A stretch of 64,000 nt of DNA, taken from the IMG/VR virus record IMGVR_UViG_3300008954_000002, positions 97,099-161,098 of that record; one strand, written 5' to 3'. Shown here one piece after another: positions 17,235 to 35,569 of this stretch. Below the pieces are notes generated by a model. It had not been told where the DNA came from, did not search any database, and saw only the letters and a list, made by a program, of their open reading frames with translations. How positions within the stretch are numbered: position 1 is the stretch's first letter; each line of letters starts with the position of its first letter. Source of the DNA: a virus. Made by a program: the position numbers and the translations under genes.

Positions 17235-20200
17235 TTACTCTGGTATTCCCGTCATTCGATTGGCTCTTAGTCCAGTCCAAGGCGTCCGCCATATTGCATC
17301 TTTCCAAGCGGTCCATTCTCTTGTCACGTCATCGATACCCCACATAGTATCATCTATTATATTGGTTACATCTCCAAAGATATTGCGCCAAATAGCCATT
17401 GGGTCACCTTGTTGTAGGCCAGACACAATTGGTCTACCACCCTTTGTCAAAGGAACAACAGCTACTGTCTCTTCTTGAAGACACTTAGCGAAAAGAATAG
17501 GACCTGCAACAAGCCAGCTAGCGCCTAGGTTATTAAAGACATTATCCAGCTTGTTCCATGCCCAAGTGCCTCCCTTTGCAGTTCCCCCAATCCCTATTGC
17601 TTTAGCAATGCGTGAGCTCCAGATACCGTTAGCAGCTGAGATACCTACCTTTCCAAGCGCTGCACTTGCAAGCCCTCTAGTCCCAAAAGCTAAACCCGTA
17701 GTTACTCCACCGACAAGCAATGCTGCTGTAAGACTTGCCATGTTGTGGCCTGGCAGTCTACCTTCTGTAAAACCACCTGTTATATCTGGATCGTCTGGAA
17801 GCATTTCGCTCATAAACTCTTCGAAATCAAATCCCTCTTGAAAGATGCCTCCATACTTCTTAGCTAAGCGCGCCTTGTAGTCGGGATCGGTAACTGCCGA
17901 CTCCCACCAGTGACTACTCCCACCCCCATCTCTAGGAATACCATCAGGGCCTACAGTGCCTGTGCCTTGCTCTTTGTCTCTAACGGCCATACAGTATAGC
18001 TTTAGTCCTTCTAGAACAGGCCAAGTAGAAATTTCATTAGCAAAGACTACTGCGTTAGGCTTTATCTCAGTTAAGAAACCTGTTTCATATGAAAACATAT
18101 GTACTACTTGCTCTACCTCAATAGGGCCAAACATATCATTATAGTCATCTAGTAGATAGCAGATATCCCAAGGCTTGATCCTAGGGTTGCCTAGCACTAG
18201 CAACTCACCACGGTACATCTTTTTAAGACCATACATGAGCGAGCTCATACCATATCGCATTGCGGCTTTCTTCCCAATGACATTCGAGAAAGATACTGGC
18301 AGTACGTTTAGGTCTGGCTCTTTAATAAAAGAGCTTGCCTTCATAGGAAGTGTTTTGCTAACTAACCGATCTCTATCATGATACAAAACAGAGACTGCGT
18401 TAACAACATTGTGCTCTGAACCCATGATGTTGTTGGATACAATATCTGTTTCAGATCTAAGCATATGGTAACGCCTAAAGGGTACAAATCTATTTTCAAG
18501 ACCTTTAAGATACTCTTCCATTACCTCATTAGTAAAGCGTAAGTTTAGATGGTCAAGAGAAGCACTTGCAGCGTATGACTCTGGCTTCTTTACATAAGAT
18601 TGGAAATTCCCATCTACATCTGATATATCTTCAATATTATTAGGGTTGAAAGGATTAAAAGATTCGCCTAACTCGACATAAGATTCTGGCAAACTGCTAC
18701 TAGAATCAATTCTTTCTTTAATCTCAAAGGAAAAAGCATCTTCTATTTTCTTCAAAGCAACTGCACCATAAAGCTTTTCGTAGATATCTCTATTAATGTT
18801 GCCATCTTCTAAATGCTCTCTAAGAGTGTTCATCCTATCTACAAAGTTATTAGTTGCGGGCTTAGACCAATACCTTTGACCTGGAACACCAAAGAACATT
18901 GTATACCTAAGAGATGTACCATAAGGTCTTGGTCCATATATCCAGCCAGGATGCCTTAGAGACATCTCATGGAATAAATCCCATATAGTAGAGTTCTGTA
19001 CTTGGTAAAGGCATTCACTTGGCAGCAATTGTTTGTTAGTTTGCCATTTGTCAGGTTGAGTCCATGCATCGTACCATTCACCTACCTTATCGGCTGTACC
19101 TGGGACACCCATAAGAGCTCCTGCAAAGCCTCCAGCGACCACAGCACCAAGGCGTTTTATAGTACTCCACTCCCAAAACTCAAACTCTAGGGTCATGTAA
19201 TCCTTAGGATTGGGAGGGTAAAGGTTATCGTCTTGAGGGCTTAAGAAGAGCGATGCTTTCTTTCTAGTGTAATTGCGTTTGACTTCGCCAATCGTAATAT
19301 CATAACCCCAACCTAGTACATCAGCTGCAGCCTGCAACCCAATACTTGCTGCAGTCGCAGCTAGAAAAGCTCGACTATTAATAGCAAGTACTCTTCCAAA
19401 GATATTAAAGCCACTGCCAGCGATCTGCTGTGCCCCTTGGAAAAAGGTAAGCCCACCAAGATTTGCACCTGAATATCCGAGCACTAGACCTCTGACTCGT
19501 GATGTCTCACTTTTGGCAAGGGTAGTAAATGCTGTTTCTATTTCTGCAAACACTGCTGTCTTTTCAGCCTTCGTGGTAGTTCCAGCAAGTTTTGTAAGCA
19601 ATGGTCTCAGCCCTGCCTTCCTAATGCTCTCAGAAGAAACACCCCCACTATGGAGAAACTTATTCACTACGCTGCCCCTGCTACCGCCCTTGGCCATGCC
19701 TATAGCCGCACCTATTCTTTGGTTGATACCTTTAGCTGTGACAGCTAGATTCTTGCCAGCAAATCCTCCCCATGTTGAGCCTCCTCCTATCTTTGCAGCT
19801 GCTCCACCCATTAGTCTGCTTACTATCCCTTTAGATGCGCCTGCAGCCGCGCCTGCTCTGCCCATAGGAGTTATAGAAAGCGCTGCAATACCAATTGCTA
19901 TGCCTGTAGATATAACTGGATGAGTCTTCATAAACTTCATCATTTTTCCTGTGAAGCTAAACCAACCCCAGAAATCTTTTTCTGAATAGTCTACAAAATC
20001 CAGCCTAGCGTCTTTAGACTCTCCGTACTGAAAGAGTTGTCCTATTTTCCATCTACCAAAATGAAGGACTTCTGGCTGCAACATCATAGAGCTTAAAAGC
20101 TTATGAGTGGTTTCGAATACTAGTGCTTCATCATTCTCGCCATAGCGACCATCATTTCTGCCTTTGATATCAGCTGTTAGCTCGACTCCAAAAGATTGTA

Positions 20201-23200
20201 CAGTCAGCTCGCATAGATCACCCTGACTGTTCCACATGACATCCACTACTCTGCCAGAGATAAGCACTTCTAACATATTAGGATCATTAGAATATCCAGC
20301 CCTAAGTTGAATATTCATTCCAGGGCGCATTACTACGGCAGAGAATGGTTGGTGTCTACCGTCCTCTACCTCGGGAACATTGTTATGCGCTTGAGTGCTG
20401 TCGTTTAACTCCTTTATCTTTGCAGCTCTTTCTCTATCAAAGTAATCTAAATCGACAACGGCTTCTCTTTTAGTGCCGTCTAGAGAGCCAGATACATTTT
20501 GCAAAACAATAGTTGCTGTATCAGCTGCACTTTCTCTACTCTGAACAACAGTAAATTCTTTTACTCCATTATAAGTATAGAAATCATCAAAATTAAGAAG
20601 CCTGCTATTGAGCTCATCTTCCTCAATAAGCATTAATTTAAAGGTTGGGTATGCACGCCTTAGGGTAAGCTTCTCAGAGATGATGTCATGAGCAGAATCA
20701 TTAGTAAGGTTTTTGAGCGATTCAGGATCAAAGGCATGTGTATACGTATCCATCGCGGCAAGTCTAGTATCTTCAACAGAGTCTACTGTATTAGTAGCTG
20801 TCTCATCAGTGAGATACTCTCCTAAGTAACCAGCTTTAGAGCCAAACATCGCCTCACTTTTAGCAACTTTCTGAACAAGATCCCGATATACATTTGCATC
20901 TACTCTCGCTTGATCACTGCCAAGGATTCCATCTGTAAGCGAAAGGTAGGGAATAAGTGGCTTAAGTCCGCCCTCAGTCGATATTGTCTTAAGCCTTGCC
21001 AGAACTGTCTTTGCATTATCTCTTGCCTTCTCCTGCTCTTTGGTACCTCTAGGCATATTCTTAATTTGCTCTGATAGCTTTTTGATCTGTTTCTCTACAT
21101 TGGCAGATCGCTGTACGAAGCTGTCTGGATCCCAAAAAGCAACCTCCATAGGGTTGAGCTCTGCCTCTTTCAGGTAATCCCACCTGCCCCCTATCTTGGT
21201 AAGAGAATCTACATCATCAGTTCCGGTTGGATGATGAACTAGTGCAGACATAATAGGCGATTGAGCAGTAGCTCCCGTAGTGAGCCCCTTGTCATCTTTG
21301 CTGCGTATGCCTGAACCCTGCATCTTCTTGAGATGGTCATAAGAGCCGTTTATCTGTGCAGCTAAATTGTCTTGTAAGTCTTCTACAATTGCTGCGCTTA
21401 CTGCACCTGGAGCATCTTCGTAAATGCTCCACATATAAAAGTCTGGATTAGTAGCATGTAGACGATCTGGATAGTAAGGGTGAGCAGGCAAATCCATATC
21501 TGGGTAACATTGAATACCAGACCAATTTGCAACGCCACCACTAAGATCAGTTGTAGCCAACTCTTCTAGCCCAAACAGTGATAGCAAAGGCATGTTGCTT
21601 AGCAATCTATCTGCTAGATCAACCAATCCAGAGCGTATCTTTTTAATCTTGTTTTCTTCATACTGGATTGAGGTCTTTATAGGGGGCAATGTAGTCCGCT
21701 GATAAGTATAGTTGCCTTGCTCAACGCTACCTTCAGATTGTAGATAACGTGGCGGTAACGACCACCATGCAAGGGCTGCTAAGTGCCCTTTAAAGCCTAA
21801 AAAGCTAGTATCTTCAACACTCTCTATGAACTTTTTAAAGGGAGCCAGTATAGTATCTGAAGCACTCATTAGAATCTGATCATGCAGCGGCATGATGTCA
21901 TTAATATATAGTTGGACTACAGTCTCAACATCAGCCTCTGCTTCCTTTCTATTGTTATCTATTGTGGTTGTTCCTTCTCCTGCCCAAAAGGGAACATCAG
22001 TGCTACCGTCACTGTCTATAGAGCCAATAAAATGGTCAAACATAGTGGGCTTATCATTTCTTCTCAAGATCTGCTGCCACTGGCTGCCGTCTCCTCTTCT
22101 GCTCTCCATAGGCGTAAGGAAGTTGACTGCACTATCTACAGCCAATGCTGTGTTATCGATAGCGCCAAAAGCTATGCGTTTGATACCCCTCCATGGGCCA
22201 CTCATTACAACAGAAGTGGTGTGTTTAATGCCTACATATCCAAACCCAAGGCCATCATCAAGTCGTGCCTTGAACTCTGCCTGTGTGCTCCACGGGTTGA
22301 CTCCTAAAGATTTTATCTCAGCAGGAGCATAAGCGCCAAGGTTCTTGCTTAGCCAAGCGCCAACACTGTCAGCTTTTAACCAATCGCCATATCTCCACTT
22401 AACATAAGCATACATCCAGTAGCCAAAACGCTGCCACATCTCTTGCTCTAGATTAGGAAGATTGTATAGCTGTTCTTTAAAGTGTTCTTCAGTAACTGCT
22501 CCTGGAACATTAGGTTCTGATACAAGACAGTTAGCTTCCTGAATAAGTCCAAGTAAGAAAGCGTGGTAGTGTCTGACAATTTCTATATCTACATCTTGTA
22601 GTCTTGGGTTTGCATAATGAAATTGAGTTACATCTACAAAGGAGGCGTCAACAAGAGTCGCTTTAATAGCTCTACTCTCAATATCTTTAATAATTCGTGC
22701 AGATTCTGCCATGCTGTGCGCTTGATCTATGCCTCCAAGTGAAAGAGCAGCTCTAGGAGTCCCAAGCGGATCAACAGGATCAATATAGCCTGCAGCTTCT
22801 AGCTGAGCAGTAGTCAACTCAATATCACTAGTTAAGTCACCCCCTGTCCTATCCAAGTAGTCTGCCATAATGCTTTTGTTAATTACATACGCATCTTGTT
22901 CCGTATCCTGAATTAACTCTCGTATCCCAGCATCAGAATTCCCAACATCATATAGATCGGCACCCCTACCTGGCACTTGGTACTGCTTAGCTCTTTCAAA
23001 AGCCTCATCACCGAAACTAGTTCTTATTTCTTTCTCTGTCATCATGAAGCTATCGCTACCATCTGCTCTTATAAATGGAGCAGCACCTACAGCTTCAAAC
23101 ATGTTGACTTGTTTTAAAGCAGTCTCACCAAAGAGCTGAGAGTAGAACTTGTCTTGACCAGTTACAGATATGTCTTGGTCAAAGACAGCCACTCTTGACG

Positions 23201-26123
23201 CATACCTCTCGGATATGCCAGCATCCATACGACCTCTCATTAGTTGTTCTGGCATGTTCTCCGAGTCAAACTCAAACTGTACCTCGTTTGCATTTTGCAA
23301 GAGTAATGCTGCAATACCTTCTTCTGTAAGCTCTAGGTTGGCTAATGCGTGCAGTACTTTCTTGCGTCGATCATCGATATCAGGCGAAGCGGTCGGTACA
23401 GCAATGATCTCTTCTTGTACATAAGGATTAGTTTCACTTACTTCAAAAACCATTGAGGATAGGCCAGGATTCCCTTCCTTTGTTTCGCAAGTAGCCCGAG
23501 TGATACACGAACGCTTACGTAGTGCTGATTGATTACTTTCATTAATCTTGTAATCGGAGTCACTATATGTGCCGAACAATCTAGTAATAAAGTTGTCTGT
23601 ACACAATGCATGCCCATCAAGTACGGGTCTAAATGCACGAGCATTATGCTGTAGCTTCTGACGCATTTCCTCCATAGATCTGCCGGGCAAAGGTATGCCT
23701 GTTAGCTTGTCATCTATTAAGGCAAACTCCATCATGTAGGATGGCTCAGTTGAGCCAAGATGCTGATGCGTAGGAAACTCAGAACCTAGAATTGGAATGC
23801 TGGCAATGTTGTGCCGCATACCGCCTGCAACGCCAATGAGTACAGCACCATCTCTAAGCAGAATCTTTTTAGTATTGAGAGCGCCATACTCTTCAGTGCC
23901 ACTTACATCGGACCAGTCAAGGTCATCATTGCCTGTGAGTATCGACAAGGTAATAGTACGACGCCAAACATTTACTACATCGCTGCGAGCGTCATAGTAC
24001 ATGAAGCCAAGATTTGCTAAGTCTTTGTAATCGTTAAGTATCCCTTCTGCTTCTTCTTGAGTTAACCCTATGCTATCAAGCTGATCCTCGGTTAGCAGAG
24101 TCTCCTCTTGTCCATCTGGCTCTACTACTGTAATAGCTGCTGCTTCTCCAAGCTCTGGATCTGCGGTTGTCGGAGTACTGGTAGTGCTTGAGCTGGGATA
24201 TGGGGCATTCTTCTTGGCAAGCTTTTGATCTTCAGAAGTCATGCCCTGGATTACATCCTGCATATATTGCGTATTAGGAGTTTGCCCATCGCGGGCATTT
24301 AGCCACGGAACAGGATTGAAAGGCATCTCCGACGTATTCTCTTGTAACTCAAAATGTAGGTGAGCCCCGGTTCCATAGGTTCCAGACAAGCCTATGGGTT
24401 GTCCTCTCGTTACTACAGCTCCCTTGTTAACATCCGTCTTAGATAGGTGTCTATACACACTTGTCATATTGAGATCAGAGTGGAGTATATACAAGACGCT
24501 ACCCGTAGCAGAGACTACTGTTCCATCCTCAACTGCATATATAGGTGTTCCCTCTGGGATAGGGATGTCGATCCCTTCGTGAGGTCTTTGCACATGCGCA
24601 GCGGGGTGATCCCAACGCCAAGAGAAATGATCAGATAGTCTAAAAGCATTTGGATCATCGTCAACTAGGCAAGGCCTATGCAGTATTAACTTGTGCATGT
24701 CCTTGCGCCGCCACTGGCTTAGCCGAGTGTGACGACCTTCTCCAGGAGCATAGGTTCTACGTTTATGTTGTCCGCGTATCTCTATAGCAGGCAGAGATGA
24801 GGTAGCGCCAGTTCTTTCTTTGCTTTGAGTTTCAACTGCTGCCTCTTGTAACTTCTTCTGCGCATCGCTGAGCTTGGCAATAATATCTGGGGTAAGGTTG
24901 AGAGTTCTATAATCTTCGTAATGAAAGATAGTTCTCTTCATTGTTGAGAGGAATGTCGACACCCATCGTTGCCTAAGTACTGGAGGTACTCCTCCAGTGT
25001 GAAGTCCAGTCACATATCCGGTAGCCTCGTCCATGGAGGTAAAGGAGGCAACGCTTTTATATAGAAGACCTGCACCTGTAGTAGAGCCACCCGGAAATTC
25101 AAAAATGTCTTGGTAGACATCAATCCCAAAGTTATCATATAAGGACTTTGCCTGTAGCGAGTTAATAAATCTTACATAGATGTTGGATAGGGCGGGCGTC
25201 ACTACCCATGCACTAGCTTGCATCCTGCTTGGGAGTGGTAGCAGATCAAAGACGCGACCAGCATGAGTTCTCTCCATGTCGTGTAGGGTCATAGTCTTTG
25301 AAGAGCTTCGTTCAATAGCTTCAAGAACAACGCTAAATGTTTCACGGGCTGGGTCTTCTTGGCGAGGACCCTCTTCCCCTGCCCTGTATTGGCTTTGGTT
25401 AAAGTTAGAGAAACCCTCTACACCTCTAATGATTGTTGGTAGCCATCCCTTCTCTCTCCCTTCGTCTTCGCTCTTCTCTGTGTACCATGAGTTAGCTTCC
25501 TTTTCATGCCCAACCATACTCTCTATGAAAGGGCCAATCCAAACAGGGATACTATATCTAACTGTATCTGTCACCGCAGACGAAGAGGACCCCTTAGATC
25601 CTGCACTAGGCACTTTTATGCTTTCTGTTGCCCACTCTCTTCTAAAAAGGAAGTTGACAGCATAGGGAGCATAATTAAACCAGCGCAGATCTATCTCGCA
25701 TGCAAAAGTGCCTGGCGTTCCCTTCATAGGAGAGACATTGATAGAAGACATTGTAAAGGCCATTTGCTGCCAGACTTCCCAGCGTGGGACAATAGTCTCA
25801 CGTAGATAGTCGTTCTCAATCCAACAGAAGGGAGAGTGCTTGAACTGGACTATCAGCCTGTGCAGAGACAATAGCATGTCTGGTGTAAAGATAATATTAA
25901 GGCTTACCTGTACAAGCCCATGCCCGCTAGGAACTTTAGTAGAGACTCTTGAGCGTAGGGTGTTCCATTGCCAATACATATCCTCCTTACGAACAGAGAT
26001 CTGAGTAGGCGGAATTACTAGCTCTATGTCGTTGATGGTAAATACAGCATTAGGATCCGATGCGTCTTTACCATCCCGATATTCCCAGCTGCGGTCGGCT
26101 GCGCCTCTAATAATACCTGCCAT
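17235..26123 (-). CDS. Giant tail-tip protein (2962 aa): M23 peptidoglycan endopeptidase domain plus baseplate hub (gp27/VgrG-like) region
   Basis: M23 motifs HEGIDIPIPEGTPIYAVEDG, YRHL and GAHLHFEL at about nt 24340-24585. Hub-like motifs RPGMNIQLRAGYS...ISGRVVDV and YRGELLVLGNPRIKPWD...VEQVVHMFS..GFLTEI. Confidence 0.75.
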   Translation of the reverse strand: MAGIIRGAADRSWEYRDGKDASDPNAVFTINDIELVIPPTQISVRKEDMYWQWNTLRSRVSTKVPSGHGLVQVSLNIIFTPDMLLSLHRLIVQFKHSPFCWIENDYLRETIVPRWEVWQQMAFTMSSINVSPMKGTPGTFACEIDLRWFNYAPYAVNFLFRREWATESIKVPSAGSKGSSSSAVTDTVRYSIPVWIGPFIESMVGHEKEANSWYTEKSEDEGREKGWLPTIIRGVEGFSNFNQSQYRAGEEGPRQEDPARETFSVVLEAIERSSSKTMTLHDMERTHAGRVFDLLPLPSRMQASAWVVTPALSNIYVRFINSLQAKSLYDNFGIDVYQDIFEFPGGSTTGAGLLYKSVASFTSMDEATGYVTGLHTGGVPPVLRQRWVSTFLSTMKRTIFHYEDYRTLNLTPDIIAKLSDAQKKLQEAAVETQSKERTGATSSLPAIEIRGQHKRRTYAPGEGRHTRLSQWRRKDMHKLILHRPCLVDDDPNAFRLSDHFSWRWDHPAAHVQRPHEGIDIPIPEGTPIYAVEDGTVVSATGSVLYILHSDLNMTSVYRHLSKTDVNKGAVVTRGQPIGLSGTYGTGAHLHFELQENTSEMPFNPVPWLNARDGQTPNTQYMQDVIQGMTSEDQKLAKKNAPYPSSSTTSTPTTADPELGEAAAITVVEPDGQEETLLTEDQLDSIGLTQEEAEGILNDYKDLANLGFMYYDARSDVVNVWRRTITLSILTGNDDLDWSDVSGTEEYGALNTKKILLRDGAVLIGVAGGMRHNIASIPILGSEFPTHQHLGSTEPSYMMEFALIDDKLTGIPLPGRSMEEMRQKLQHNARAFRPVLDGHALCTDNFITRLFGTYSDSDYKINESNQSALRKRSCITRATCETKEGNPGLSSMVFEVSETNPYVQEEIIAVPTASPDIDDRRKKVLHALANLELTEEGIAALLLQNANEVQFEFDSENMPEQLMRGRMDAGISERYASRVAVFDQDISVTGQDKFYSQLFGETALKQVNMFEAVGAAPFIRADGSDSFMMTEKEIRTSFGDEAFERAKQYQVPGRGADLYDVGNSDAGIRELIQDTEQDAYVINKSIMADYLDRTGGDLTSDIELTTAQLEAAGYIDPVDPLGTPRAALSLGGIDQAHSMAESARIIKDIESRAIKATLVDASFVDVTQFHYANPRLQDVDIEIVRHYHAFLLGLIQEANCLVSEPNVPGAVTEEHFKEQLYNLPNLEQEMWQRFGYWMYAYVKWRYGDWLKADSVGAWLSKNLGAYAPAEIKSLGVNPWSTQAEFKARLDDGLGFGYVGIKHTTSVVMSGPWRGIKRIAFGAIDNTALAVDSAVNFLTPMESRRGDGSQWQQILRRNDKPTMFDHFIGSIDSDGSTDVPFWAGEGTTTIDNNRKEAEADVETVVQLYINDIMPLHDQILMSASDTILAPFKKFIESVEDTSFLGFKGHLAALAWWSLPPRYLQSEGSVEQGNYTYQRTTLPPIKTSIQYEENKIKKIRSGLVDLADRLLSNMPLLSLFGLEELATTDLSGGVANWSGIQCYPDMDLPAHPYYPDRLHATNPDFYMWSIYEDAPGAVSAAIVEDLQDNLAAQINGSYDHLKKMQGSGIRSKDDKGLTTGATAQSPIMSALVHHPTGTDDVDSLTKIGGRWDYLKEAELNPMEVAFWDPDSFVQRSANVEKQIKKLSEQIKNMPRGTKEQEKARDNAKTVLARLKTISTEGGLKPLIPYLSLTDGILGSDQARVDANVYRDLVQKVAKSEAMFGSKAGYLGEYLTDETATNTVDSVEDTRLAAMDTYTHAFDPESLKNLTNDSAHDIISEKLTLRRAYPTFKLMLIEEDELNSRLLNFDDFYTYNGVKEFTVVQSRESAADTATIVLQNVSGSLDGTKREAVVDLDYFDRERAAKIKELNDSTQAHNNVPEVEDGRHQPFSAVVMRPGMNIQLRAGYSNDPNMLEVLISGRVVDVMWNSQGDLCELTVQSFGVELTADIKGRNDGRYGENDEALVFETTHKLLSSMMLQPEVLHFGRWKIGQLFQYGESKDARLDFVDYSEKDFWGWFSFTGKMMKFMKTHPVISTGIAIGIAALSITPMGRAGAAAGASKGIVSRLMGGAAAKIGGGSTWGGFAGKNLAVTAKGINQRIGAAIGMAKGGSRGSVVNKFLHSGGVSSESIRKAGLRPLLTKLAGTTTKAEKTAVFAEIETAFTTLAKSETSRVRGLVLGYSGANLGGLTFFQGAQQIAGSGFNIFGRVLAINSRAFLAATAASIGLQAAADVLGWGYDITIGEVKRNYTRKKASLFLSPQDDNLYPPNPKDYMTLEFEFWEWSTIKRLGAVVAGGFAGALMGVPGTADKVGEWYDAWTQPDKWQTNKQLLPSECLYQVQNSTIWDLFHEMSLRHPGWIYGPRPYGTSLRYTMFFGVPGQRYWSKPATNNFVDRMNTLREHLEDGNINRDIYEKLYGAVALKKIEDAFSFEIKERIDSSSSLPESYVELGESFNPFNPNNIEDISDVDGNFQSYVKKPESYAASASLDHLNLRFTNEVMEEYLKGLENRFVPFRRYHMLRSETDIVSNNIMGSEHNVVNAVSVLYHDRDRLVSKTLPMKASSFIKEPDLNVLPVSFSNVIGKKAAMRYGMSSLMYGLKKMYRGELLVLGNPRIKPWDICYLLDDYNDMFGPIEVEQVVHMFSYETGFLTEIKPNAVVFANEISTWPVLEGLKLYCMAVRDKEQGTGTVGPDGIPRDGGGSSHWWESAVTDPDYKARLAKKYGGIFQEGFDFEEFMSEMLPDDPDITGGFTEGRLPGHNMASLTAALLVGGVTTGLAFGTRGLASAALGKVGISAANGIWSSRIAKAIGIGGTAKGGTWAWNKLDNVFNNLGASWLVAGPILFAKCLQEETVAVVPLTKGGRPIVSGLQQGDPMAIWRNIFGDVTNIIDDTMWGIDDVTREWTAWKDAIWRTPWTGLRANRMTGIPE

Positions 26124-29100
26124 TAGTCACCCATCAGTCTGTCAATATAGTTAGGAGTCAGTGGTCTCCTAGTGTCATTAATTCGTATTGAGCCAGAACC
26201 TCTAATGCCTGCAAGAAAATCCATAGAAGCTCTTACTCCACTAGTAGAGGGTACCTCACCTCTAATTTGATAAGCGTTTTGTCTTGAGAAATAAGTTTCT
26301 CCAGTGTTTACAGGCCTATGCATCATATCATTGTGTGGTCCCCCACCCAAGCTTTCTGGGGTGGGCATGTTGTCTTCTCTTGGTGCAAACAGCTCTCCTC
26401 TTCGTATAGCTGTTGCTACTCCAGAGTCCATTACTTCACCAGCAGACAACATTGGAGTAGGTGAATATCCTTCACTTCCCATAACTCCTTTAAGTGCTAA
26501 AGTAATACCTACACCTGCAGCTACGGGACCAAGGAATCGTTTGTCTAGCTTCTGTGTAGCGCTTGTAATGCGATTAGTGGTTGCAGCTATCTCATCCATG
26601 GTGCCTGCAAGACCAGTAGTAGTCTCAAGGGCAAGTCCTGCTTCCATAGCATGTCTTTGTTCGACCTGAAGAGCAAAGGCTCTCCGTGTTGCAGCTTTCT
26701 CACCTTTGAACATTTGGGCATTCTGATAGGCAGTCCCACTAAATTCTGCACCTGTCTCGTGTACATAGCGCGCAGCCATACGGCCAGACTCAACTAAGGA
26801 GCCAACACTAACCGCTCTGCCTTCTTGCAGCAGTGACTTGTTGAGCTGCTGCATTATTTTGGCTTCTTCTCCGGTACCGCCCAGCCCCCCCAGTTGCTGG
26901 GCTAGCATATCTTTATTGAAGCCAGTAATTCTAAGACCTTCCTTCGTATTTATGGCTGAGCCTTCAAAGATGTCTTCTAGAACTTTCTGGTACTTAAGTG
27001 AGCCTGCTTCAGATCCACCAGTTCGGATCATCTCATTAGTAGCTTCAATAAGATCTCCTGCCATATTTTTATAATGTGCATGGTGTTTGGCTTTGATTGC
27101 TACAATCTCTTCTATAGCAGTAAGACCAGCTAGCCCCTGCTGGGCAGCACTATATCCCATCTCTGCAGAAGTTTGTACTGTCCCCAACCTAAGCTTGTTA
27201 AGCGCCACATCAATTCTGCCAATGTCTTTAGCAGTAGCTTCTTTCATAACCTCATGATAGCGAGCTTCTTGAGGTGAGAGCTCACCTAATGCGCTTACTT
27301 CCATTTGAGCAGTCTTCTTGATAACTTCTGAAGCCTCCTCCATGATAGCGCCTACTTCAGCCCTATACCTAAGGGCTTCATTTGAAAACATCTCTTTTGC
27401 TGCAGAGGATTTCTGGAAGTAACCACTAGTGCCTTTCTTTGCAGAGGGAAAGAACAGCTGATAGTTATCGCCATCAAAGTCACCAATCATTCCAGCAGCA
27501 AAACTAAGGTTTAGCTTTATGCCCTTCTTCCTGTTGTTGTAGTGGACATCTACTTCAAAGTTGGGAATATAAACCTTGCCTCCGCCCTCTGTCGGTGCCA
27601 AAGCACTTATGTTTCTAGCCATGCTCTGGAAGAAGTCACCCATTGCTCCCCCTGCCTTCCGTCTAAGCCCTTTCTCTGTGCCAGGAAGCGCCATCCGTCT
27701 CATCTCTTGGAAGCTAGATGGCCTCCTACCTGTAGCAGCCTCAAACCTAGCAAGAGCAGCTTTACCTTCTGGAGTGCCTCTAGTGAACTTGCCAAACATT
27801 ACATCCGCCCGACCTGTTTCAGGTGCATATCTGAATGTCTGGGCAGGGGCTACATGCCCTGGGCCAAGCACTGGATCTCGACCTAGGATAGTTTCAGTTC
27901 CCTCTGTAAGTCTCGCTTCCATTCCAAGGAAGTAAGACTGGAATCGAGATCCCATTTCTTCCATGGCAGCACCCTTAGCTTTCCCACCTGTCATACCTAC
28001 CGCCTCATAAGAAGCAGTAGCTCCACCCATGTATCCACGCATTGAATCTAGAAAGCGTTGTGTATCGGCAAAAACCGCACTGCCACTAGAGCGCTTAAAA
28101 GCAAGCTGGGTCCGTGACAACTGTGCCTTGGTAAGCTCAGTGGTTGGAAATTCACCTGCTATCTGAAGACTAGCACCCAACCCATAGGAAGAGCCTCTAA
28201 GCTTTCCTCTTAGGACACTATTGTAAGTATTCCCAAATAGCTCACTAATGCCTGCCTTCCATTCGCGCAGTAAGTCGGCGTTTGCACCCGCGTCCACAGA
28301 CTGCCTAATGGTATTCAAGTTGTCGGATAGAAGATGTATCTTTCGTGTGTACTCCCCATGTATTGGCTTTGGTCCCTCAGCAGTTTTAATTTCAACACCC
28401 CTCATAAGTGCCATAGTGTTACCGCCAGCAATTCTAATTTGTCGAGTTCCAAGTGCAGCTTCTGCAGCTCTTCCTGTCTTATCTCTTACTCCACCAAGGT
28501 CAAGTATAAAGCCTTCCTTATGCTGTGCAAGCAATTCGGTCATGGCTCGTGTATCACGCGATCCTTCGAGAAAGGCGTCTACGCCTATAGTAGTAAGCTT
28601 TTGGGATGCTTTATATCCAGCAACTACTCCCTCTCGTCCACTAAGCGTGAGCTGCATCTTGGAAAGATCCTGAACAATCTTCAAGTGTTCAGCTGCTCCT
28701 CTTTTACGAGCAAGAACCATAGCCATAAAGTCGTTGGCCTCATTAGCGGGCATTCCGAGATTAGCTACTTGATGCTGAAGGAACTGGTAATAGCGCGGCT
28801 CTATAGAAGACTCTGCTGATCGAAGTATCTGAGAAAGTGGACCTGGAGTAATAGTATCAGCACCAAGAGCTGTTCCTCTCTTAGCTGATGCGATAATTTT
28901 CCCAGCAAGAGGCCCTGCTTCTCCTTTGATAAGGTTAGCCACTGCTGTCTGTGCTTCACCCTTTGCACCAAACCCATATAAGTCTGCGTGCTTGTAAAGC
29001 CCAGCCATAACCATGCCCATCTGCCCGGTTCTTGCTTCTGCATTAGGCAGTGCAAGCATTTTCTTCAAGGTAAGGCTTGCCATGTTCTCAAGATAAGCCC

Positions 29101-31390
29101 GGTCTCTAGCTACCTTTGACATGCCCTTATAGGCTGCGTCAGGGAGAGCGTCCTTATCCTTATTAATGGTGTTGAATAAACTATTCCAAGTTTTGTCTTT
29201 TGTTCCATAGCCCGCCATGAGACCCATACCGGTAACCATCTGTCTAGCTACTGCTCCTGAACCCTTCTTGAGCATGCCTCCACCAGAGAGCATTGTCTGT
29301 TCTGCTCCAAGCCCCAGCGCTTGGACCTCGCTAAGAACCCCGGCTCTACCCAGCATCTCGCGTTGCATTTCCGGTGTCATTCCCTTAGTAAAAGATTTTG
29401 TAAGTGTCGAGAAGGCTTTGGCAGAACTCGTATCTATAACTACGCTGCCACCAAAATGAATCCTAGGTGTACCCATAACATTAGAGGCACTCTCAAATGC
29501 AAGATTAAGCTCTTGCATGCCTGTGTAATGTGCAAGCTCTGCTCCTTGCCCTATCTGAGAAAGAGTATTGCCGTACTTGCCAAAGAACTTAGCTATCTCT
29601 TTCTCACCACTCACACTAATCTTACCTGCTCCAGAAGACCAAGCAGTCTGTCCTTCAAGAAGCTCATTGAGCAGCTGGGTAGATGGAAGATCCAATGCCG
29701 CAACGTCCAGTACAGACTTCTGTATTGCTTGCCTAACTCTTGCCTTGCCTCCAAGCCAAGCTTCACCTGGCCCAAGAGAAAAGACATTCTTACCACTAAG
29801 ATCCATGACGATAGCTTTATTCATACCACCTGTTAGACCATTAGACCACCCTACGTTTTGGCCAAACTGCTGAAAGGTTCTTGATGAGCCGAGTGTACTT
29901 TCTACTGGATTTGCAGGCTGGACAAACATGCCTTCCCTACCAGTAACCTGCCTAATACGCATTGTTGCTGGTAGTGTACCTCGATCTGTTAATCCAAGTG
30001 GTGTAATTTGGCTTAGAGGACTGTTGGCACCTAGTCCAATTCGCGTCCAAGAGCCTCCGCCGGGAAGCCGCTTTACTTCATGGCTGCCACCAATATCAAA
30101 AAGACCTCCCTCTGCATACGCAAAATACTTTCTAAGCTCAGTCTGTGCCTTTAGATCAAGAGCGTCCCACCCAGCGATAGTCATGCTTGAATGACTAATA
30201 GCTTGTTGTGCTAACAGGTGCCCCCTCATAGGAGAAGAACCCGGTATTGATACAGCCCTGCTTTGCGATGTGCCAAAGCTCCGTTGGAATTTGCCAACAG
30301 TATCTGCATTAATCTTGCTTGCATTGCCGCCAACAGCTTTCAGTCTATTGAGAAAGTCATTGGCAAAGAAATCAGTTACACTCCCGATGGCACCTGCCTT
30401 CTTAAGGCGACCGATACTATTTTGATCCCAGACTGCTGCACCAGGAGCACCCGTCTTTCTAAATTCGTTTAACAGCTTTGTTGCATCTGCAAATAAAATA
30501 TCAGCACTATACTGTGCAGTACTTTGAGCACCTACTCTAAAAACAGGAACGCCACTTGGGCTGTTCAGGCTTAGAGGTATGCTTGCTCTGAAGGTACTAC
30601 GGTTGCGCCCCTTGTTATATATGTGGGCATAAAGATCATCTCCTTGCCCCTGCATAATCCTGACCTCGCCAGTGCCCCTCATTGCTTTCTCAAATTGCCC
30701 CTTCCATGCTGCTATCTTGGGAGATAGTTCTCCTGAGAACTCAGTGAAATTAGGGTTGAGTCCTCTTAGATTATACGTAGGAGCCTGTAGCTGCTCTCGC
30801 ATTCCTTGGTTTCTACCCAGCAAACGATGGAATGTAGCTTGGGCTTCTGGAGTGCCACTCTCTAAAACCGTATTCACAGTACTCTGTACTATTTTGGCTG
30901 CATCCTCAGTAAGCTGAGCCTCTCCATTTCGCATAAGCTCTATCAATTTGCTTTTAATATCTTGAGCTTTTGCTGTAGAAATACCTGAAGTAGCATCATC
31001 AACAGCTTCAACAATTGTACTCAGAATTGCATTGCGAGATTCAACGCCTTCACCAAGCATTCTTGTAATGCTATCCTTGGAGGGGTTAATTAAATCTTCA
31101 GCAAACTTCTGAAACTTTACTTGGTTAATCTCCTCTCTAGCTGCACGCGCTCTTTTTAGGGAATTCCCGATACTGGCATTAGAGTCTCTAAACCCATGTG
31201 TCTTAAGCCCCAACAGAGAGCCAGGCGTATTACTCTTGAGCGCAGCAACCCCTACACCAACACCTACTGCTATAGGTGCTACACCAACAACTTGCTCAAT
31301 AAAATTGCGACTAGTATCGCCAACCTCCTGAGTGCTGAAATCTGTTCTTTGGGATTTGCCAAACAATCTAAGAAGAGGGTCAATTGCCAC
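26123..31390 (-). CDS. Putative single-chain two-barrel (DPBB) DNA-dependent RNA polymerase, probably virion-associated (1755 aa)
   Basis: DFDGD at aa 1304-1308 (nt 27467-27481) within KGIKLNLSFAAGMIGDFDGDNYQLFFP, colinear with beta' [27 protein letters not shown]. Upstream TILGRDPVL resembles beta' VLLNRAPTL. Candidate lysine pair K658/K665. GTG start with GGAG SD. Confidence 0.7.
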   Translation of the reverse strand: MAIDPLLRLFGKSQRTDFSTQEVGDTSRNFIEQVVGVAPIAVGVGVGVAALKSNTPGSLLGLKTHGFRDSNASIGNSLKRARAAREEINQVKFQKFAEDLINPSKDSITRMLGEGVESRNAILSTIVEAVDDATSGISTAKAQDIKSKLIELMRNGEAQLTEDAAKIVQSTVNTVLESGTPEAQATFHRLLGRNQGMREQLQAPTYNLRGLNPNFTEFSGELSPKIAAWKGQFEKAMRGTGEVRIMQGQGDDLYAHIYNKGRNRSTFRASIPLSLNSPSGVPVFRVGAQSTAQYSADILFADATKLLNEFRKTGAPGAAVWDQNSIGRLKKAGAIGSVTDFFANDFLNRLKAVGGNASKINADTVGKFQRSFGTSQSRAVSIPGSSPMRGHLLAQQAISHSSMTIAGWDALDLKAQTELRKYFAYAEGGLFDIGGSHEVKRLPGGGSWTRIGLGANSPLSQITPLGLTDRGTLPATMRIRQVTGREGMFVQPANPVESTLGSSRTFQQFGQNVGWSNGLTGGMNKAIVMDLSGKNVFSLGPGEAWLGGKARVRQAIQKSVLDVAALDLPSTQLLNELLEGQTAWSSGAGKISVSGEKEIAKFFGKYGNTLSQIGQGAELAHYTGMQELNLAFESASNVMGTPRIHFGGSVVIDTSSAKAFSTLTKSFTKGMTPEMQREMLGRAGVLSEVQALGLGAEQTMLSGGGMLKKGSGAVARQMVTGMGLMAGYGTKDKTWNSLFNTINKDKDALPDAAYKGMSKVARDRAYLENMASLTLKKMLALPNAEARTGQMGMVMAGLYKHADLYGFGAKGEAQTAVANLIKGEAGPLAGKIIASAKRGTALGADTITPGPLSQILRSAESSIEPRYYQFLQHQVANLGMPANEANDFMAMVLARKRGAAEHLKIVQDLSKMQLTLSGREGVVAGYKASQKLTTIGVDAFLEGSRDTRAMTELLAQHKEGFILDLGGVRDKTGRAAEAALGTRQIRIAGGNTMALMRGVEIKTAEGPKPIHGEYTRKIHLLSDNLNTIRQSVDAGANADLLREWKAGISELFGNTYNSVLRGKLRGSSYGLGASLQIAGEFPTTELTKAQLSRTQLAFKRSSGSAVFADTQRFLDSMRGYMGGATASYEAVGMTGGKAKGAAMEEMGSRFQSYFLGMEARLTEGTETILGRDPVLGPGHVAPAQTFRYAPETGRADVMFGKFTRGTPEGKAALARFEAATGRRPSSFQEMRRMALPGTEKGLRRKAGGAMGDFFQSMARNISALAPTEGGGKVYIPNFEVDVHYNNRKKGIKLNLSFAAGMIGDFDGDNYQLFFPSAKKGTSGYFQKSSAAKEMFSNEALRYRAEVGAIMEEASEVIKKTAQMEVSALGELSPQEARYHEVMKEATAKDIGRIDVALNKLRLGTVQTSAEMGYSAAQQGLAGLTAIEEIVAIKAKHHAHYKNMAGDLIEATNEMIRTGGSEAGSLKYQKVLEDIFEGSAINTKEGLRITGFNKDMLAQQLGGLGGTGEEAKIMQQLNKSLLQEGRAVSVGSLVESGRMAARYVHETGAEFSGTAYQNAQMFKGEKAATRRAFALQVEQRHAMEAGLALETTTGLAGTMDEIAATTNRITSATQKLDKRFLGPVAAGVGITLALKGVMGSEGYSPTPMLSAGEVMDSGVATAIRRGELFAPREDNMPTPESLGGGPHNDMMHRPVNTGETYFSRQNAYQIRGEVPSTSGVRASMDFLAGIRGSGSIRINDTRRPLTPNYIDRLMGD

Positions 31391-31405: not shown

Positions 31406-34400
31406 TTACATAGCTCTAGCGAGTAAACTTAGTATATCTGATTCTCTTGAATCATTATAGTGCAGTTGGGCTTGAGTCTGCCCACCCCAATAGCCATGCA
31501 CACTCATATCTCTAGAGCCTCGCTGGTGCTCAGACCTAGGCAAGTTATACATAAGCTCTCCTATGGAGTCTCTATGAAGGGGATGATCTTGGTAGAGGAA
31601 ATCAGTTGAGCCTTCTAGGTAGGGCTTGCGAGCGAGCATTCTCACATCCCTTTGCCAGCCACCATACTCATGAACATCTCTACCAAGATCATCCGTATAT
31701 TTGATCTTGATATCTCTTAAATCTACATCTGCATTATGCCCTATCCAGTCTTCGGAAGGCAAAGGCTTATCATAGAAATATCCTTGCAGCTCATTAAAAC
31801 GACTCGCTAAGTAAGCTTCATTAACCTGTGTTGCAGAGCCTGCATGCAACCCAGGATCGCCCCTATCCATTCTTTCCCATACTGTCTGATAGAGGTGGGC
31901 CTGATCCGTAGGAACCATTTCAAGGATTCTTTGCCTATCTTCTCCCTGTGCAAAAGTGAATGCATCATAAAACTTCTTTTCTCCCTCTGGCATTGCTGCA
32001 TAGATGCCAAGCGGATTACCTTGAGGGTTGACACCAAAGCGAGTTTGCTGAGCCCTATAAAGGGCCTGACGCTTCTCATTGCCCTGAGACTTTTGAGCAA
32101 TTGTCATCCACTTCATAAACTCTAGCTTGTCAAAATACTCATCGGTCTGACGCGTCTCTTCTACATGACCGGGGATTCCCCTATAGCCCATAAGATTAGC
32201 AGCCTGATAAGCAGCTGGCCTAAACCAGTCACGTACTGGCTTGTCCCAAAACGCCATATTCGTGCCGTACAAATTTGTCCTTTCATATTCCTCTATAGCG
32301 TCTCTATTCCCCATCAGCTTAGACATAGGTCTAAAGCCGAAAGGCATCATATACTCAGCGGGTTCAACAATAGCTCTAAGCGATCTTTGTCCAACATGCC
32401 AAGCAGCTTGTGTAGCTTCAGAAAGCAGTGGAACTTCAATTGCGTTATCATGAGTTGGTAAGAAACCGTCACCGATTAGCTTCTTATTAAGTCTTGTATC
32501 AATAAGATCAATGAAGTCGTTTGTATTCCTGCCTGTCAATCCAGCGGCACGAGCTTTATATATCTGAGCTCTTGTGGTTCTAAACTCAGGTGACCAATCT
32601 GCCACATCAGCTAGGATGGCATATCGATAAGCTATTGGATACTTTTCAGGATCAACTCCACGCAGCTCTGGATGTATAGCTTGGTACCCAGCCCCAGGCA
32701 ATCTTACATCAGCATCAGGAATAGTTCTGTACGGATCACCCATCTTGTACCTTTGGGGCAACCATGAAGGCATGGTATTTAAGATAGGATTATATTCGTC
32801 AACCTCTGGTCTTATTCTAGGCAGAAAGCGCCTTGCAAGCTCTGAGGTAAAGAAGGCACCCCCCAAGTCCATACCCCAGAAGGCCTCTCTAAGATCGGTA
32901 ATGGAACTTGCACTAGACAATACAGAGCGCTGACTGAAGAATGTCTCTGAGCCAGTCAGCTTCTTTGTTATCACATTGGAAAGAAATCCTGTTAATCCTT
33001 CCATCTCTCTAAAGCGATAACTTGATGCACCTGCTACAAAGCCAGGCGTATATGGGGACATTGGCTTGCCTGGCGTTAGCCCGCCAAGCTCATAGTTAGG
33101 ACCCTTATACTCAGGGGCATGAGCGAACTCTAACTGGTCTCCTTGGCCTGTACGAACCCAGTCTGGGACATGCATGAGTTTGGGCGGCTTAATAACTCGT
33201 CCAATAGTTGCCGCTAGAGCAGGCCCAATCATTGGGACGTCTTCAAATGCACTACCCGTAATTGTATGGGGCCTATTCCAATAGTTTCTTCTCTCAAGCT
33301 CATAAGTAAAGTTCTTTCGTAAGAACTTCCCAAGAGGACTAATGCTGTCTTCATCCTCTCCCCAGCGTGCTCTCTCTGAAGCCCTGCTTCTCCAAAGAGC
33401 AAACCGGTGAGGTCTCATATACTTTGTTTCACCTCCCTCAATATCTCCACCACCACCTTCCCAGAACCGACTTGCTCTTACTTCAATCTGTTGCTTCCCA
33501 GAGTATATGTCCATGAGATCGCTGGGGTTCTCTAGGCTGCCAATACCACCAGTAGTAAGCAATCTGTGAGCTGCTGCGCCGGCGGCAAACAATACTCCTA
33601 AGCGACCGATACGAGGCTTAAATCCAGTCTCCTCAAAAAGTCTTGTAAGATACTCTTGACCTACAAGCTCCTTGCTTAAATTTGCTCCAAAGAACCCGTG
33701 CATGGCACGGCTGCTAAATGATTCTGCGACTCTCGCTGCTCTAGCTACAAAACCTGTCCTTCCAGAATAGTGTTTGTCTATCCGTTTTAACGATTGCTGT
33801 AGGGAAGCATTGAGTGGGTTATTTTCAAGAAAGGCTTTATCTTGTGCAGTAGCTCCACTTCGTTCAAGCTGGAGCCTATCCATAAGAGCACCCCATCGCC
33901 CTTGTTCTTTGGCAGACTTCTGCATAGCAAAGAACAGCCGATTTCTTCTAACTGTTTTGGGTAGCTTGCCCTCCATGATTTGATTAGCTTTTTCTGCAGA
34001 GACATAGCCTTCATTAATTGCTACATTATGGACACTGCTCCAATACCTATCTCTAGCAGAGAGGCCAACAATTCCAGCACCCTTGACACTGCTTGCTTCT
34101 AGTGCAGCCTTTTGGAAACCAATCCTGCCATCAAGAATTCCACTTAGTCGGAAGGGTTCCTGTCCATACCTTTCAACAAGATGTGCAGGCAAACCTAAAT
34201 ACCCAGCAGCAGCCAATGATAAGCCGGCAAAGGCACTAGTCTTCCAATCGGTTATCCCTGGGGCAAAACCCTCCAGTGTCCTTCGGTATATATTAAGCCC
34301 AGTAAATTTCCCAACGGCAGCTAGACCTACTTGGCCAGTTGCCCAAGTATCAGCAATACCTTGTCCAGTACCCTTGTCAAAACCAGGCAATAGCATTTGC

Positions 34401-35569
34401 CCAAAGAAAGCACCTACGCCTACCATCATGGAGGCGCGCTGACTTCCTCCAAACTTCTTAGTAAGTGCAGCGGCACCTGCTGCCATTCCTCCTGACACAA
34501 GTGCATGCCCAGGAAGTCCACCCTGCCTTCTTATCCAGTCTAGCTGCTTAACAGCCAGAATAGCACCACCAACCTGTGCCCCCTTAATGCCAAACCGTGT
34601 AAACATCTCCATGCCTGTTCCAGGACGAACAGCAAGTGACATTCCAAGATGCTTTTCAAACGATTGTGCTACACCACCTAAGAGTGGCAGCTGATCCATC
34701 GTTGTTCCAATAAGCCTATTAAGTCTTTGAGCTCCAAAAGCATAGAGCGATCTGAAATAAGTACTTCTATTAGATAGATCAGAAAGGTTTCGTAGCGGAC
34801 CTCCAACTGAAGGCATTGGCATGAAGCGAGAAATCTCTCCAGATACCGAGTCAGAGAATACTCTTCTAAATTGGTTAGGAGACCACTCTTTAAAAAACCC
34901 GCCAGCCTGCAGAACCGATTGGTAAGCAGGAGTCATCTTGGGTTGCTTGAGGCCTACTTGTGCAGCTTGGGCAACGTCTTTAGCTGATACTGGAGTAGTC
35001 TCAAATAAAGAAGCAGCGCTGGATACTAGTTCCCAAAGGCCTTTAGTTCCTTTGCGTGCAAAAAGACTACCTCTAGCGGCTGAGCGGGCATCTCTCTCAA
35101 AGAGGAGCTCGAACCCTTCGTCGCCAAACCCTCTGTTGATGCCTAACTTGTCAAAAGTCTCCCCACCAAAGAACTTCCTAACAACTTGCTCTGTCTCACC
35201 AGCGCCAAGAACATCTTTGCCCCAGTGCACTCCAACTACATCTCTAGTTAAGAGCTTACCTCCTGGCCCCATAAACTGTTGAGCAGCATACTTCTTAGCT
35301 CCCTGCATCCCCGAAGATACAAAGGGCGACATCCATTCGGCAGCACCAAAGGTATTGCCAAAACTCCATGGGGTGCTAGACGCAGCATGTCTTACTATTC
35401 TTTGAAGATCATCAATAACTCGACCGCCACTAGTAAGCGGACGTGTAGTTGCATAAAGCCCAGCTCCACCTAAGGCAGCGGTGATAGCAAGATTGAAAGC
35501 TCTCCCTGAGGGGGGATTCCACGGAGTGGCTTCCTCAGAAGTCCACCTATGCCCAGGGTGATAAGCCAC
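31406..35569 (-). CDS. Tape-measure-like / ejected virion protein (1387 aa)
   Basis: First long ORF after the tube and chaperone genes. Helical, Gly/Ala-rich and basic, with several hydrophobic segments (e.g. LAITAALGGAGLYA, ASMMVGVGAFFGQMLL, AFAGLSLAAAGYLGL). Confidence 0.55.
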   Translation of the reverse strand: MAYHPGHRWTSEEATPWNPPSGRAFNLAITAALGGAGLYATTRPLTSGGRVIDDLQRIVRHAASSTPWSFGNTFGAAEWMSPFVSSGMQGAKKYAAQQFMGPGGKLLTRDVVGVHWGKDVLGAGETEQVVRKFFGGETFDKLGINRGFGDEGFELLFERDARSAARGSLFARKGTKGLWELVSSAASLFETTPVSAKDVAQAAQVGLKQPKMTPAYQSVLQAGGFFKEWSPNQFRRVFSDSVSGEISRFMPMPSVGGPLRNLSDLSNRSTYFRSLYAFGAQRLNRLIGTTMDQLPLLGGVAQSFEKHLGMSLAVRPGTGMEMFTRFGIKGAQVGGAILAVKQLDWIRRQGGLPGHALVSGGMAAGAAALTKKFGGSQRASMMVGVGAFFGQMLLPGFDKGTGQGIADTWATGQVGLAAVGKFTGLNIYRRTLEGFAPGITDWKTSAFAGLSLAAAGYLGLPAHLVERYGQEPFRLSGILDGRIGFQKAALEASSVKGAGIVGLSARDRYWSSVHNVAINEGYVSAEKANQIMEGKLPKTVRRNRLFFAMQKSAKEQGRWGALMDRLQLERSGATAQDKAFLENNPLNASLQQSLKRIDKHYSGRTGFVARAARVAESFSSRAMHGFFGANLSKELVGQEYLTRLFEETGFKPRIGRLGVLFAAGAAAHRLLTTGGIGSLENPSDLMDIYSGKQQIEVRASRFWEGGGGDIEGGETKYMRPHRFALWRSRASERARWGEDEDSISPLGKFLRKNFTYELERRNYWNRPHTITGSAFEDVPMIGPALAATIGRVIKPPKLMHVPDWVRTGQGDQLEFAHAPEYKGPNYELGGLTPGKPMSPYTPGFVAGASSYRFREMEGLTGFLSNVITKKLTGSETFFSQRSVLSSASSITDLREAFWGMDLGGAFFTSELARRFLPRIRPEVDEYNPILNTMPSWLPQRYKMGDPYRTIPDADVRLPGAGYQAIHPELRGVDPEKYPIAYRYAILADVADWSPEFRTTRAQIYKARAAGLTGRNTNDFIDLIDTRLNKKLIGDGFLPTHDNAIEVPLLSEATQAAWHVGQRSLRAIVEPAEYMMPFGFRPMSKLMGNRDAIEEYERTNLYGTNMAFWDKPVRDWFRPAAYQAANLMGYRGIPGHVEETRQTDEYFDKLEFMKWMTIAQKSQGNEKRQALYRAQQTRFGVNPQGNPLGIYAAMPEGEKKFYDAFTFAQGEDRQRILEMVPTDQAHLYQTVWERMDRGDPGLHAGSATQVNEAYLASRFNELQGYFYDKPLPSEDWIGHNADVDLRDIKIKYTDDLGRDVHEYGGWQRDVRMLARKPYLEGSTDFLYQDHPLHRDSIGELMYNLPRSEHQRGSRDMSVHGYWGGQTQAQLHYNDSRESDILSLLARAM

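Follow-up and report, generated by a model that had tools for sequence, protein, structure and literature searches.

A tail-module gene of an uncultured myovirus encodes a probable single-chain two-barrel RNA polymerase

The 64,000-nucleotide stretch analysed here (the window; positions 97,099 to 161,098 of the IMG/VR virus record IMGVR_UViG_3300008954_000002) contains an open reading frame (ORF) at 26123..31390 on the minus strand, which encodes a protein of 1755 amino acids (aa), hereafter P0001. An earlier reading of the window from its sequence without database searches had proposed that this protein is a cryptic single-chain two-barrel RNA polymerase encoded in the tail module of a myovirus, and the present analysis follows up this proposal. 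P0001 starts with a GTG codon, which is preceded by a GGAG Shine-Dalgarno sequence 6 nt upstream, and the TAA stop of the preceding 1387-aa gene lies 13 nt before this GTG, whereas at its other end the P0001 stop codon overlaps the ATG of the downstream 2962-aa gene as TAATG, an overlap that the sequence-only reading had already pointed out. P0001 is translationally coupled to both of these giant neighbours. Cysteine is absent from both P0001 and the upstream 1387-aa protein, and the two proteins are Gly-rich (11-12%, with 11.8% in P0001). Three short motifs, each backed by conservation, are central to its assignment:

aa 1304-1308 (nt 27467..27481, minus strand): DFDGD, an invariant Asp triad and predicted catalytic metal site.
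aa 658-665 (nt 29396..29419, minus strand): KAFSTLTK, with the invariant Lys pair K658/K665; the family consensus is KxFSxxxKGT.
aa 1171-1173 (nt 27872..27880, minus strand): RDP (R1171-D-P1173), the RxP element of the beta' barrel.

Taken alone, a DxDxD pattern is weak evidence, because a protein as long as P0001 and with its share of Asp (3.7%) is expected to contain about 0.09 by chance. An exhaustive HMMER search retrieved 124 cluster representatives of the P0001 family, mostly 1650-1830 aa in length (clusters were defined at 50% identity, and the family comprises at least 124 of them), and a relative found by a word-based search, with 56% identity, keeps DFDGD. DxDxD occurs exactly once, at the equivalent site, in every homologue that covers the region, while its two x positions are free to vary (F/W/Y/H/M/A/Q/N/R/V/S/T and G/A/D/S/K). 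Among 70-79 aligned full-length members with 20-59% identity, Q481, G542, K658, K665, P1173, D1304, D1306, D1308 and E1428 are invariant; R1171, K709, R866, R1187, D1196, E1384 and K1435 are conserved to at least 96%, and R478, R485, E864, G879, K1063, K1383 and K1433 to at least 90%. Of 70 sequences, 69 have R at column 1171 and one has K, and P1173 is present in all of them. Two-barrel enzymes share eight universal residues, namely three Asp, an R and a P of Rpb1 together with two Lys and one Asp of Rpb2, and these positions include Rpb1 R446/P448, Rpb2 K979/K987 and Rpb2 D837 (Ruprich-Robert and Thuriaux, PMC2919709). Seven of the eight have an invariant or near-invariant counterpart in the P0001 family, and, judged from the alignments, the conservation pattern is far beyond chance. 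Since the catalytic residues are invariant while their neighbours vary freely, the pattern carries the signature of selection for catalysis. The elements singled out by the sequence-only reading hold up well in these alignments: the DFDGD to which it attached meaning is found where it had been placed, the upstream R1171 motif likened there to beta' corresponds to the RxP columns, the echo of beta' seen in VLRGKLRGSS falls on G1062, K1063 and G1066 (conserved to at least 94%), and K658/K665, put forward as beta-type barrel lysines, lie within the beta-like half of the structural model.

This AlphaFold2 model of the P0001 core (aa 440-1480), built with a 70-sequence alignment, reached a pLDDT of 90.8 and a pTM of 0.90 and consists of mixed strands and helices. 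The sequence-only reading had named an all-helical model and a DFDGD lost among homologues as the two outcomes speaking against it; the confident mixed alpha/beta model therefore rules out an all-helical tape-measure outcome, and the triad proved invariant. With Foldseek against the PDB, no match at E <=1e-3 was obtained for the model, and the top 50 weak matches were almost all RNA polymerase (RNAP) large subunits. An unbiased structure comparison with 48,161 PDB chains, independent of Foldseek, returned RNA polymerases for all of its best 16 matches. There, the top matches include the beta-like subunits of vaccinia, AR9 and phiKZ, archaeal and eukaryotic largest subunits align over model residues 479-1041, and overall the first half of the model resembles beta/Rpb2 and the second half beta'/Rpb1, with the beta-like half (K658/K665) lying N-terminal to the beta'-like half (R1171, DFDGD). 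QDE-1, RDR2, P74-26 gp62 and P23-45 gp96 align across both halves, and bare double-psi beta-barrels (DPBBs; a designed DPBB, VAT-N and Cdc48-N) align at model residues 627-876 with a root-mean-square deviation of 2.5 A, corresponding to P0001 aa 1066-1315, the stretch with R1171 and the Asp triad. In addition, all clusters from a shape search of the ESM Atlas were either RNA-dependent RNA polymerase (RdRP; PF05183) clusters, which span the whole model, or Rpb1 (PF00623) clusters, which match its second half. Altogether, three independent structure libraries yield almost only two-barrel RNA polymerases, in agreement with the single-chain two-barrel enzyme that had been proposed.

We consider it highly probable that P0001 is a two-barrel polymerase with an intact predicted active site, and most likely it is a very divergent, single-chain nucleotide polymerase of beta-then-beta' order, working as a DNA-dependent RNA polymerase. 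Its core would span aa ~450-1480, perhaps from ~224, and would pair a Lys barrel (K658, K665, K709) with an Asp-triad barrel (R1171, P1173, D1304/D1306/D1308), the triad presumably holding the catalytic Mg2+. The structural matches also bear on a different function, in which P0001 is a packaged two-barrel enzyme whose main job is other than mRNA synthesis, such as genome pulling, the making of replication primers, or RNA-templated (QDE-1/RDR) or DNA synthesis (PolD). Among full-length structural matches, those that rank highest are enzymes with RNA-dependent or dual activity (QDE-1, RDR2 and the RdRP clusters), and the two-barrel fold is shared with archaeal PolD (PMC10770324). However, the characterised phage members of the superfamily, YonO, phi14:2 gp66 and P23-45 gp96 and gp64, are all DNA-dependent RNA polymerases (PMC10770324), a DnaG-type primase-helicase and DNA polymerase III (Pol III) alpha are already encoded in the genome, and a double-stranded DNA phage has no obvious RNA template at entry. 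We regard such a function as unlikely.

A direct precedent for a DNA-dependent RNA polymerase in such a setting, which lowers the novelty of P0001, is P23-45 gp96, a 5,002-aa tape measure protein whose N-terminal part is a two-barrel RNA polymerase (DFDGD at 779-783), with transmembrane and metallopeptidase parts after it; it is present in the virion, transcribes the pre-early genes including the gene of the non-virion polymerase gp64, and has counterparts in P74-26, G20c and TSP4 (PDB 8H2M/8H2N; Chaban et al. 2024, PMC10770324). Like gp96, P0001 has hydrophobic helices in cis, and its genome shares the P23-45-like trait of a second two-barrel polymerase (P0003). Unlike the Thermus phage, a long-tailed siphovirus, the P0001 phage is contractile-tailed, and P0001 is its own 1755-aa gene amid three giants, with the M23 peptidase in the next, TAATG-coupled ORF. 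Moreover, the polymerase core is N-terminal in gp96 and lies mid-protein in P0001, gp96 is clamp-less where P0001 has a predicted helical connector of ~200 aa, and the beta' barrel of the P0001 family carries an insertion of 70-1250 aa. P23-45 gp64 and P74-26 gp62 (PDB 8F5M) are soluble early enzymes of ~600 aa, whereas P0001 is three times larger, has hydrophobic helices and is encoded amid tail genes. To QDE-1, RDR2 and YonO (PF05183), the likeness is at the fold level only, with no PF05183 HMM match at E = 1, and it is P0003, not P0001, that is the putative YonO-like polymerase of this phage. The phi14:2 gp66 protein (PDB 6VR4) resembles P0001 as a giant virion-type protein spotted via DxDxD, with a single-chain two-barrel core within a larger protein encoded amid structural genes, while the phiKZ and AR9 RNAPs differ in being multisubunit, encoded by several genes and clearly related in sequence to bacterial beta/beta'.

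The low visibility of the family is evident from searches by sequence. P0001 gave no match in Pfam (E up to 1) or PHROGs, PF05183 and tape-measure families included; against the PDB, neither the single sequence nor the 70-sequence profile returned anything other than designed helical repeats, and tblastn against 50,697 records of cultured phages, run with the whole protein and with the barrel region as query, found no credible match. No sequence similarity to P23-45 gp96 was detected. A published survey that looked for viruses with two polymerases used the filter [RK]xPx{20,100}DxDxD, which only 14 of 81 P0001 family members pass, through a chance [RK]xP. Most members fail this filter because their homologous R-x-P lies at least 108 residues from the triad (108-427 residues, median 124), a spacing that results from the insertion inside the barrel, and we found no published description of the family. 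Two relatives from IMG/VR, L017:4250-11437 (2395 aa) and L020:2303-11443 (3046 aa), match the P0001 family HMM with E-values of 5e-242 and 1e-207, respectively, making them bona fide members, and carry ~590 and ~1250 extra residues at the same insertion site. In L017 the insertion holds a helix-hairpin-helix DNA-binding motif (PF12836, E 6e-7, above the Pfam threshold). The barrel insertion site is plastic, ranging from 70 to 1250 aa across the family.

Outside the three motifs, P0001 has the following parts, among them the hydrophobic Gly-rich segments that had been noted near its termini by eye:

aa 33-51 (nt 31238..31294, minus strand): N-terminal hydrophobic Gly/Val/Ala-rich helix, a candidate membrane segment.
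aa 66-200 (nt 30791..31195, minus strand): helical domain, delimited on the model.
aa 861-1061 (nt 28208..28810, minus strand): mostly helical connector between the two barrels, with conserved E864, R866 and G879.
aa ~1197-1264 (nt 27599..27802, minus strand): lineage-specific helical insertion inside DPBB-A.
aa 1329-1480 (nt 26951..27406, minus strand): long helices after the barrel, a candidate bridge-helix region with conserved K1383, E1384, E1428, K1433 and K1435.
aa 1619-1637 (nt 26480..26536, minus strand): C-terminal hydrophobic Gly-rich helix.
aa 1700-1755 (nt 26126..26293, minus strand): C-terminal tail, a candidate assembly or docking signal, with D1739, R1741, P1743 and R1751.

The stretch aa 66-1480 was modelled as confident globular domains, and the N-terminal hydrophobic helix falls within a low-confidence arm (aa 1-63); within the modelled aa 1-1480 we saw no helical part resembling a ruler. 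A structure search with the helical domain gave only non-specific matches. On the predicted structure, the connector sits where a clamp-type element would be, and the helices at aa 1329-1480 are inside the span of the beta'/Rpb1 structural alignments. Apart from the active site, the C-terminal tail is the best-conserved stretch of the family.

All large genes of the window are on the minus strand and follow the order large terminase, portal, protease-like, major head protein, sheath, tube, tube paralogue, four small genes and the three giants, after which come baseplate wedge and fibre-like genes. Because sheath, tube and baseplate wedge genes flank P0001, the phage is a myovirus, as had been supposed from the sequence. 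The genes most relevant here are:

39467-41551 (minus strand): sheath gene.
31406..35569 (minus strand): upstream giant of 1387 aa with no family match, the positional equivalent of 0305phi8-36 gp145 and ME3 gp035.
17235..26123 (minus strand): downstream giant of 2962 aa with an M23 peptidase at aa 514-599; its counterparts in 0305phi8-36 and ME3 are their 'baseplate hub/peptidase' giants.

In composition, none of the three giants resembles a ruler. BLASTP among the three, and of the 1387-aa protein against the L020 giant, found nothing, and an ESM Atlas feature search with the 1387-aa protein gave nothing informative. As a side observation, PHROG matches of the endolysin type fall near aa 2535-2693 of the 2962-aa giant, which also has two hydrophobic segments (aa 2070-2088 and 2795-2813). 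Distant metagenomic relatives keep the order sheath, tube, ~1375-aa gene, ~1700-aa gene and ~2800-3270-aa gene with M23, and every P0001 family member whose context was inspected lies in the same myovirus tail module.

The terminase is 26-29% identical to those of Moorella phage MTATph1, Acinetobacter phage ME3 and Bacillus phage 0305phi8-36, all of which share the giant trio after the tail chaperones. Both 0305phi8-36 (gp145-gp146-gp147) and ME3 (gp035-gp036-gp037) have the same order of sheath, tube, chaperones and three giants, the last being the peptidase/hub protein; ME3 is a cultured jumbo myovirus. The P0001 family profile gave no significant match to ME3 gp036, 0305phi8-36 gp145/gp146 or the Moorella MTATph1 giants (hhalign, hmmsearch). 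ME3 gp036 ('hypothetical protein', 1603 aa; NC_041884.1 33172-37983; L010:23173-27984) is nevertheless like P0001 at the level of motif, position and predicted fold, which sequence profiles miss: it has KFFSVGSK at 632 and DHDQD at 1217 as its only DxDxD, and a two-piece ME3 entry of BFVD (801 + 802 residues), which we equate with gp036 from the summed length of 1603 aa, matches the P0001 model with a probability of 0.99-1.00. This makes gp036 a better bridge to P0001 than the 0305phi8-36 giants. The best BFVD match of the P0001 model overall is A0A172Q0S6, a 798-aa ME3 protein (E 3e-7). The only 798-aa ORF found in ME3 (L039:15453-17849, minus strand; ME3 224453-226849), equated with A0A172Q0S6 by length only, is without DxDxD, and the protein may be an inactive or a different relative. 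A further ME3 ORF of 5419 aa lies outside the tail module (104783-121042, minus strand; loci L033-L034).

It is in this slot that a purely structural role has to be weighed, in which P0001 would serve as tape measure or ejection protein and its polymerase-like core would be a catalytically dead relic. The middle giant of 0305phi8-36, gp146, is annotated 'hypothetical tape measure protein', and the same-slot giants of 0305phi8-36 and Moorella MTATph1 are without DxDxD and have no similarity to P0001, showing that the slot does not require catalysis. A canonical tape measure is an extended, mostly helical ruler, whereas P0001 is modelled as globular domains and matches no tape-measure family; furthermore, a relic would hardly keep seven of eight universal catalytic residues invariant at 20-59% identity while their neighbours vary freely. 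We rate a dead core as very improbable.

A second putative polymerase is encoded elsewhere in the genome. P0003 (952 aa; L001:1849-4707, plus strand) has a GDDDGD motif and a weak match to PF05183, and in a control search with PF05183 only Bacillus subtilis responded among the control genomes, at a similar sub-threshold level; we take this match to be the YonO gene of the SPbeta prophage. P0003 is accordingly a candidate YonO/QDE-1-like single-chain polymerase, encoded by a separately placed gene and recognised by its weak PF05183 match. Homologues are present in the 56% relative (on the same contig as the P0001 relative) and in the next closest IMG/VR relative. Between the P0001 and P0003 families there is no sign of paralogy (hhalign probability 0.1). 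The phage 0305phi8-36 encodes a clear PF05183 enzyme, which is already published (PMC7824862).

The genome assembly has 161,098 bp with ends overlapping by 119 bp and was treated as circularly assembled. Around the assembly junction, terminator-like hairpins are enriched (17 observed against 4.2 +/- 2.3 expected), and seven units of a hairpin followed by TTTTATTTTAATGG occur within ~5.5 kb across it:

window 63210, 63682 and 63882, and L001 1221, 1458, 1805 and 4758 (plus strand): hairpin + TTTTATTTTAATGG units.

Each unit consists of a GC-rich stem of 12-14 bp capped by a TTCG loop, with TTTTATTTTAATGG after it, and one of them lies 44 nt upstream of the P0003 gene. These units could be terminators, hairpin promoters or combined terminator-plus-promoter units of a pre-early region. 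An inference on which genome end enters first was rejected, as the terminal repeat, at 119 bp, has the length of a commonly used assembler k-mer.

From these elements a course of infection can be proposed. P0001 would be expressed late, together with the tail genes, and be assembled into the virion along with its two giant neighbours; when the phage infects a cell, the protein would leave through or with the contracting tail, while the M23-peptidase giant would open the cell wall and the hydrophobic helices at aa 33-51 and 1619-1637 would hold P0001 at the membrane or the DNA channel. At this site P0001 would transcribe the first phage genes without need of the host RNA polymerase, and the YonO-like P0003 would succeed it, much as P23-45 runs a cascade of two polymerases. 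We favour this sequence of late synthesis, packaging, ejection, anchoring, first-gene transcription and hand-over to P0003 with moderate confidence. While the gene with its motifs, their conservation, the fold, the synteny and the presence of a second polymerase gene are established here, we infer catalysis, the DNA template, packaging, ejection and the cascade alike, packaging in particular from translational coupling, conserved synteny, the hydrophobic helices, the conserved C-terminal tail and the virion detection of the 0305phi8-36 positional counterparts. According to the record annotation of that phage, its first two giants are virion proteins by mass spectrometry; as its same-slot giants have neither the motif nor similarity to P0001, this evidence transfers by position only.

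Packaging is the step at issue if P0001 is instead an active enzyme that is made late and stays outside the virion, a non-virion polymerase encoded by chance amid tail genes. The globular core does seem oversized for the tail lumen. Coupling on both sides to structural giants, with an order conserved across the family, argues for the virion instead, and the two hydrophobic helices and the highly conserved C-terminal tail are atypical for soluble polymerases. Moreover, the separately placed second polymerase already fills the non-virion role, and a late-only enzyme would find little to transcribe. An unpackaged P0001 therefore appears quite improbable to us.

Several points nevertheless weigh against P0001 as an active, packaged polymerase that hands over to P0003. 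Upstream of K658, no invariant Asp or Glu was found as a counterpart of Rpb2 D837, the best candidates being D530 (76%) and D562 (79%), and the Lys pair of the family is spaced by 7 residues, not 8. Besides the lack of DxDxD in the same-slot giants of 0305phi8-36 and MTATph1, a P0003-like gene was found in only one of five more distant, larger relatives, where one of the negative genomes is rated complete and the profile is narrow (three close sequences). In addition, unless it unfolds, a globular core of ~110 kDa that carries a clamp-like connector could get through a tail tube only with difficulty.

For the lineage as a whole, it is a tentative but real possibility that a widespread group of contractile-tailed phages, uncultured relatives of 0305phi8-36 and ME3, ejects a ~190-kDa single-chain two-barrel RNAP as one of three giant tail-module proteins and then runs a host-RNAP-independent cascade to a YonO-like polymerase. 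If so, the 'tape measure' slot of this lineage would encode an enzyme, and tail-delivered transcription would have arisen in myoviruses independently of the Thermus siphovirus case. So far, tail-associated delivery of a cellular-type RNAP is documented in a single small group, certain Thermus siphoviruses; with at least 124 clusters, in a family invisible to Pfam, PHROGs and PDB sequence searches, the strategy would be common and would extend to contractile tails. This raises the questions of how a ~110-kDa core leaves through the tube and which protein measures tail length. For experiments, a starting point is available in the cultured Acinetobacter phage ME3, in whose gp036 the motifs are kept.

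Elsewhere in the genome, a tubulin/FtsZ-like GTPase gene is present at L002:11639-12913 (plus strand; PF00091, E 4e-5, below cut-off). Furthermore, the ribonucleotide reductase is interrupted by inteins with LAGLIDADG endonuclease domains, and the DNA polymerase III alpha is split over several genes with an intein fragment (L003:15151-19332; L004:4506-8162).

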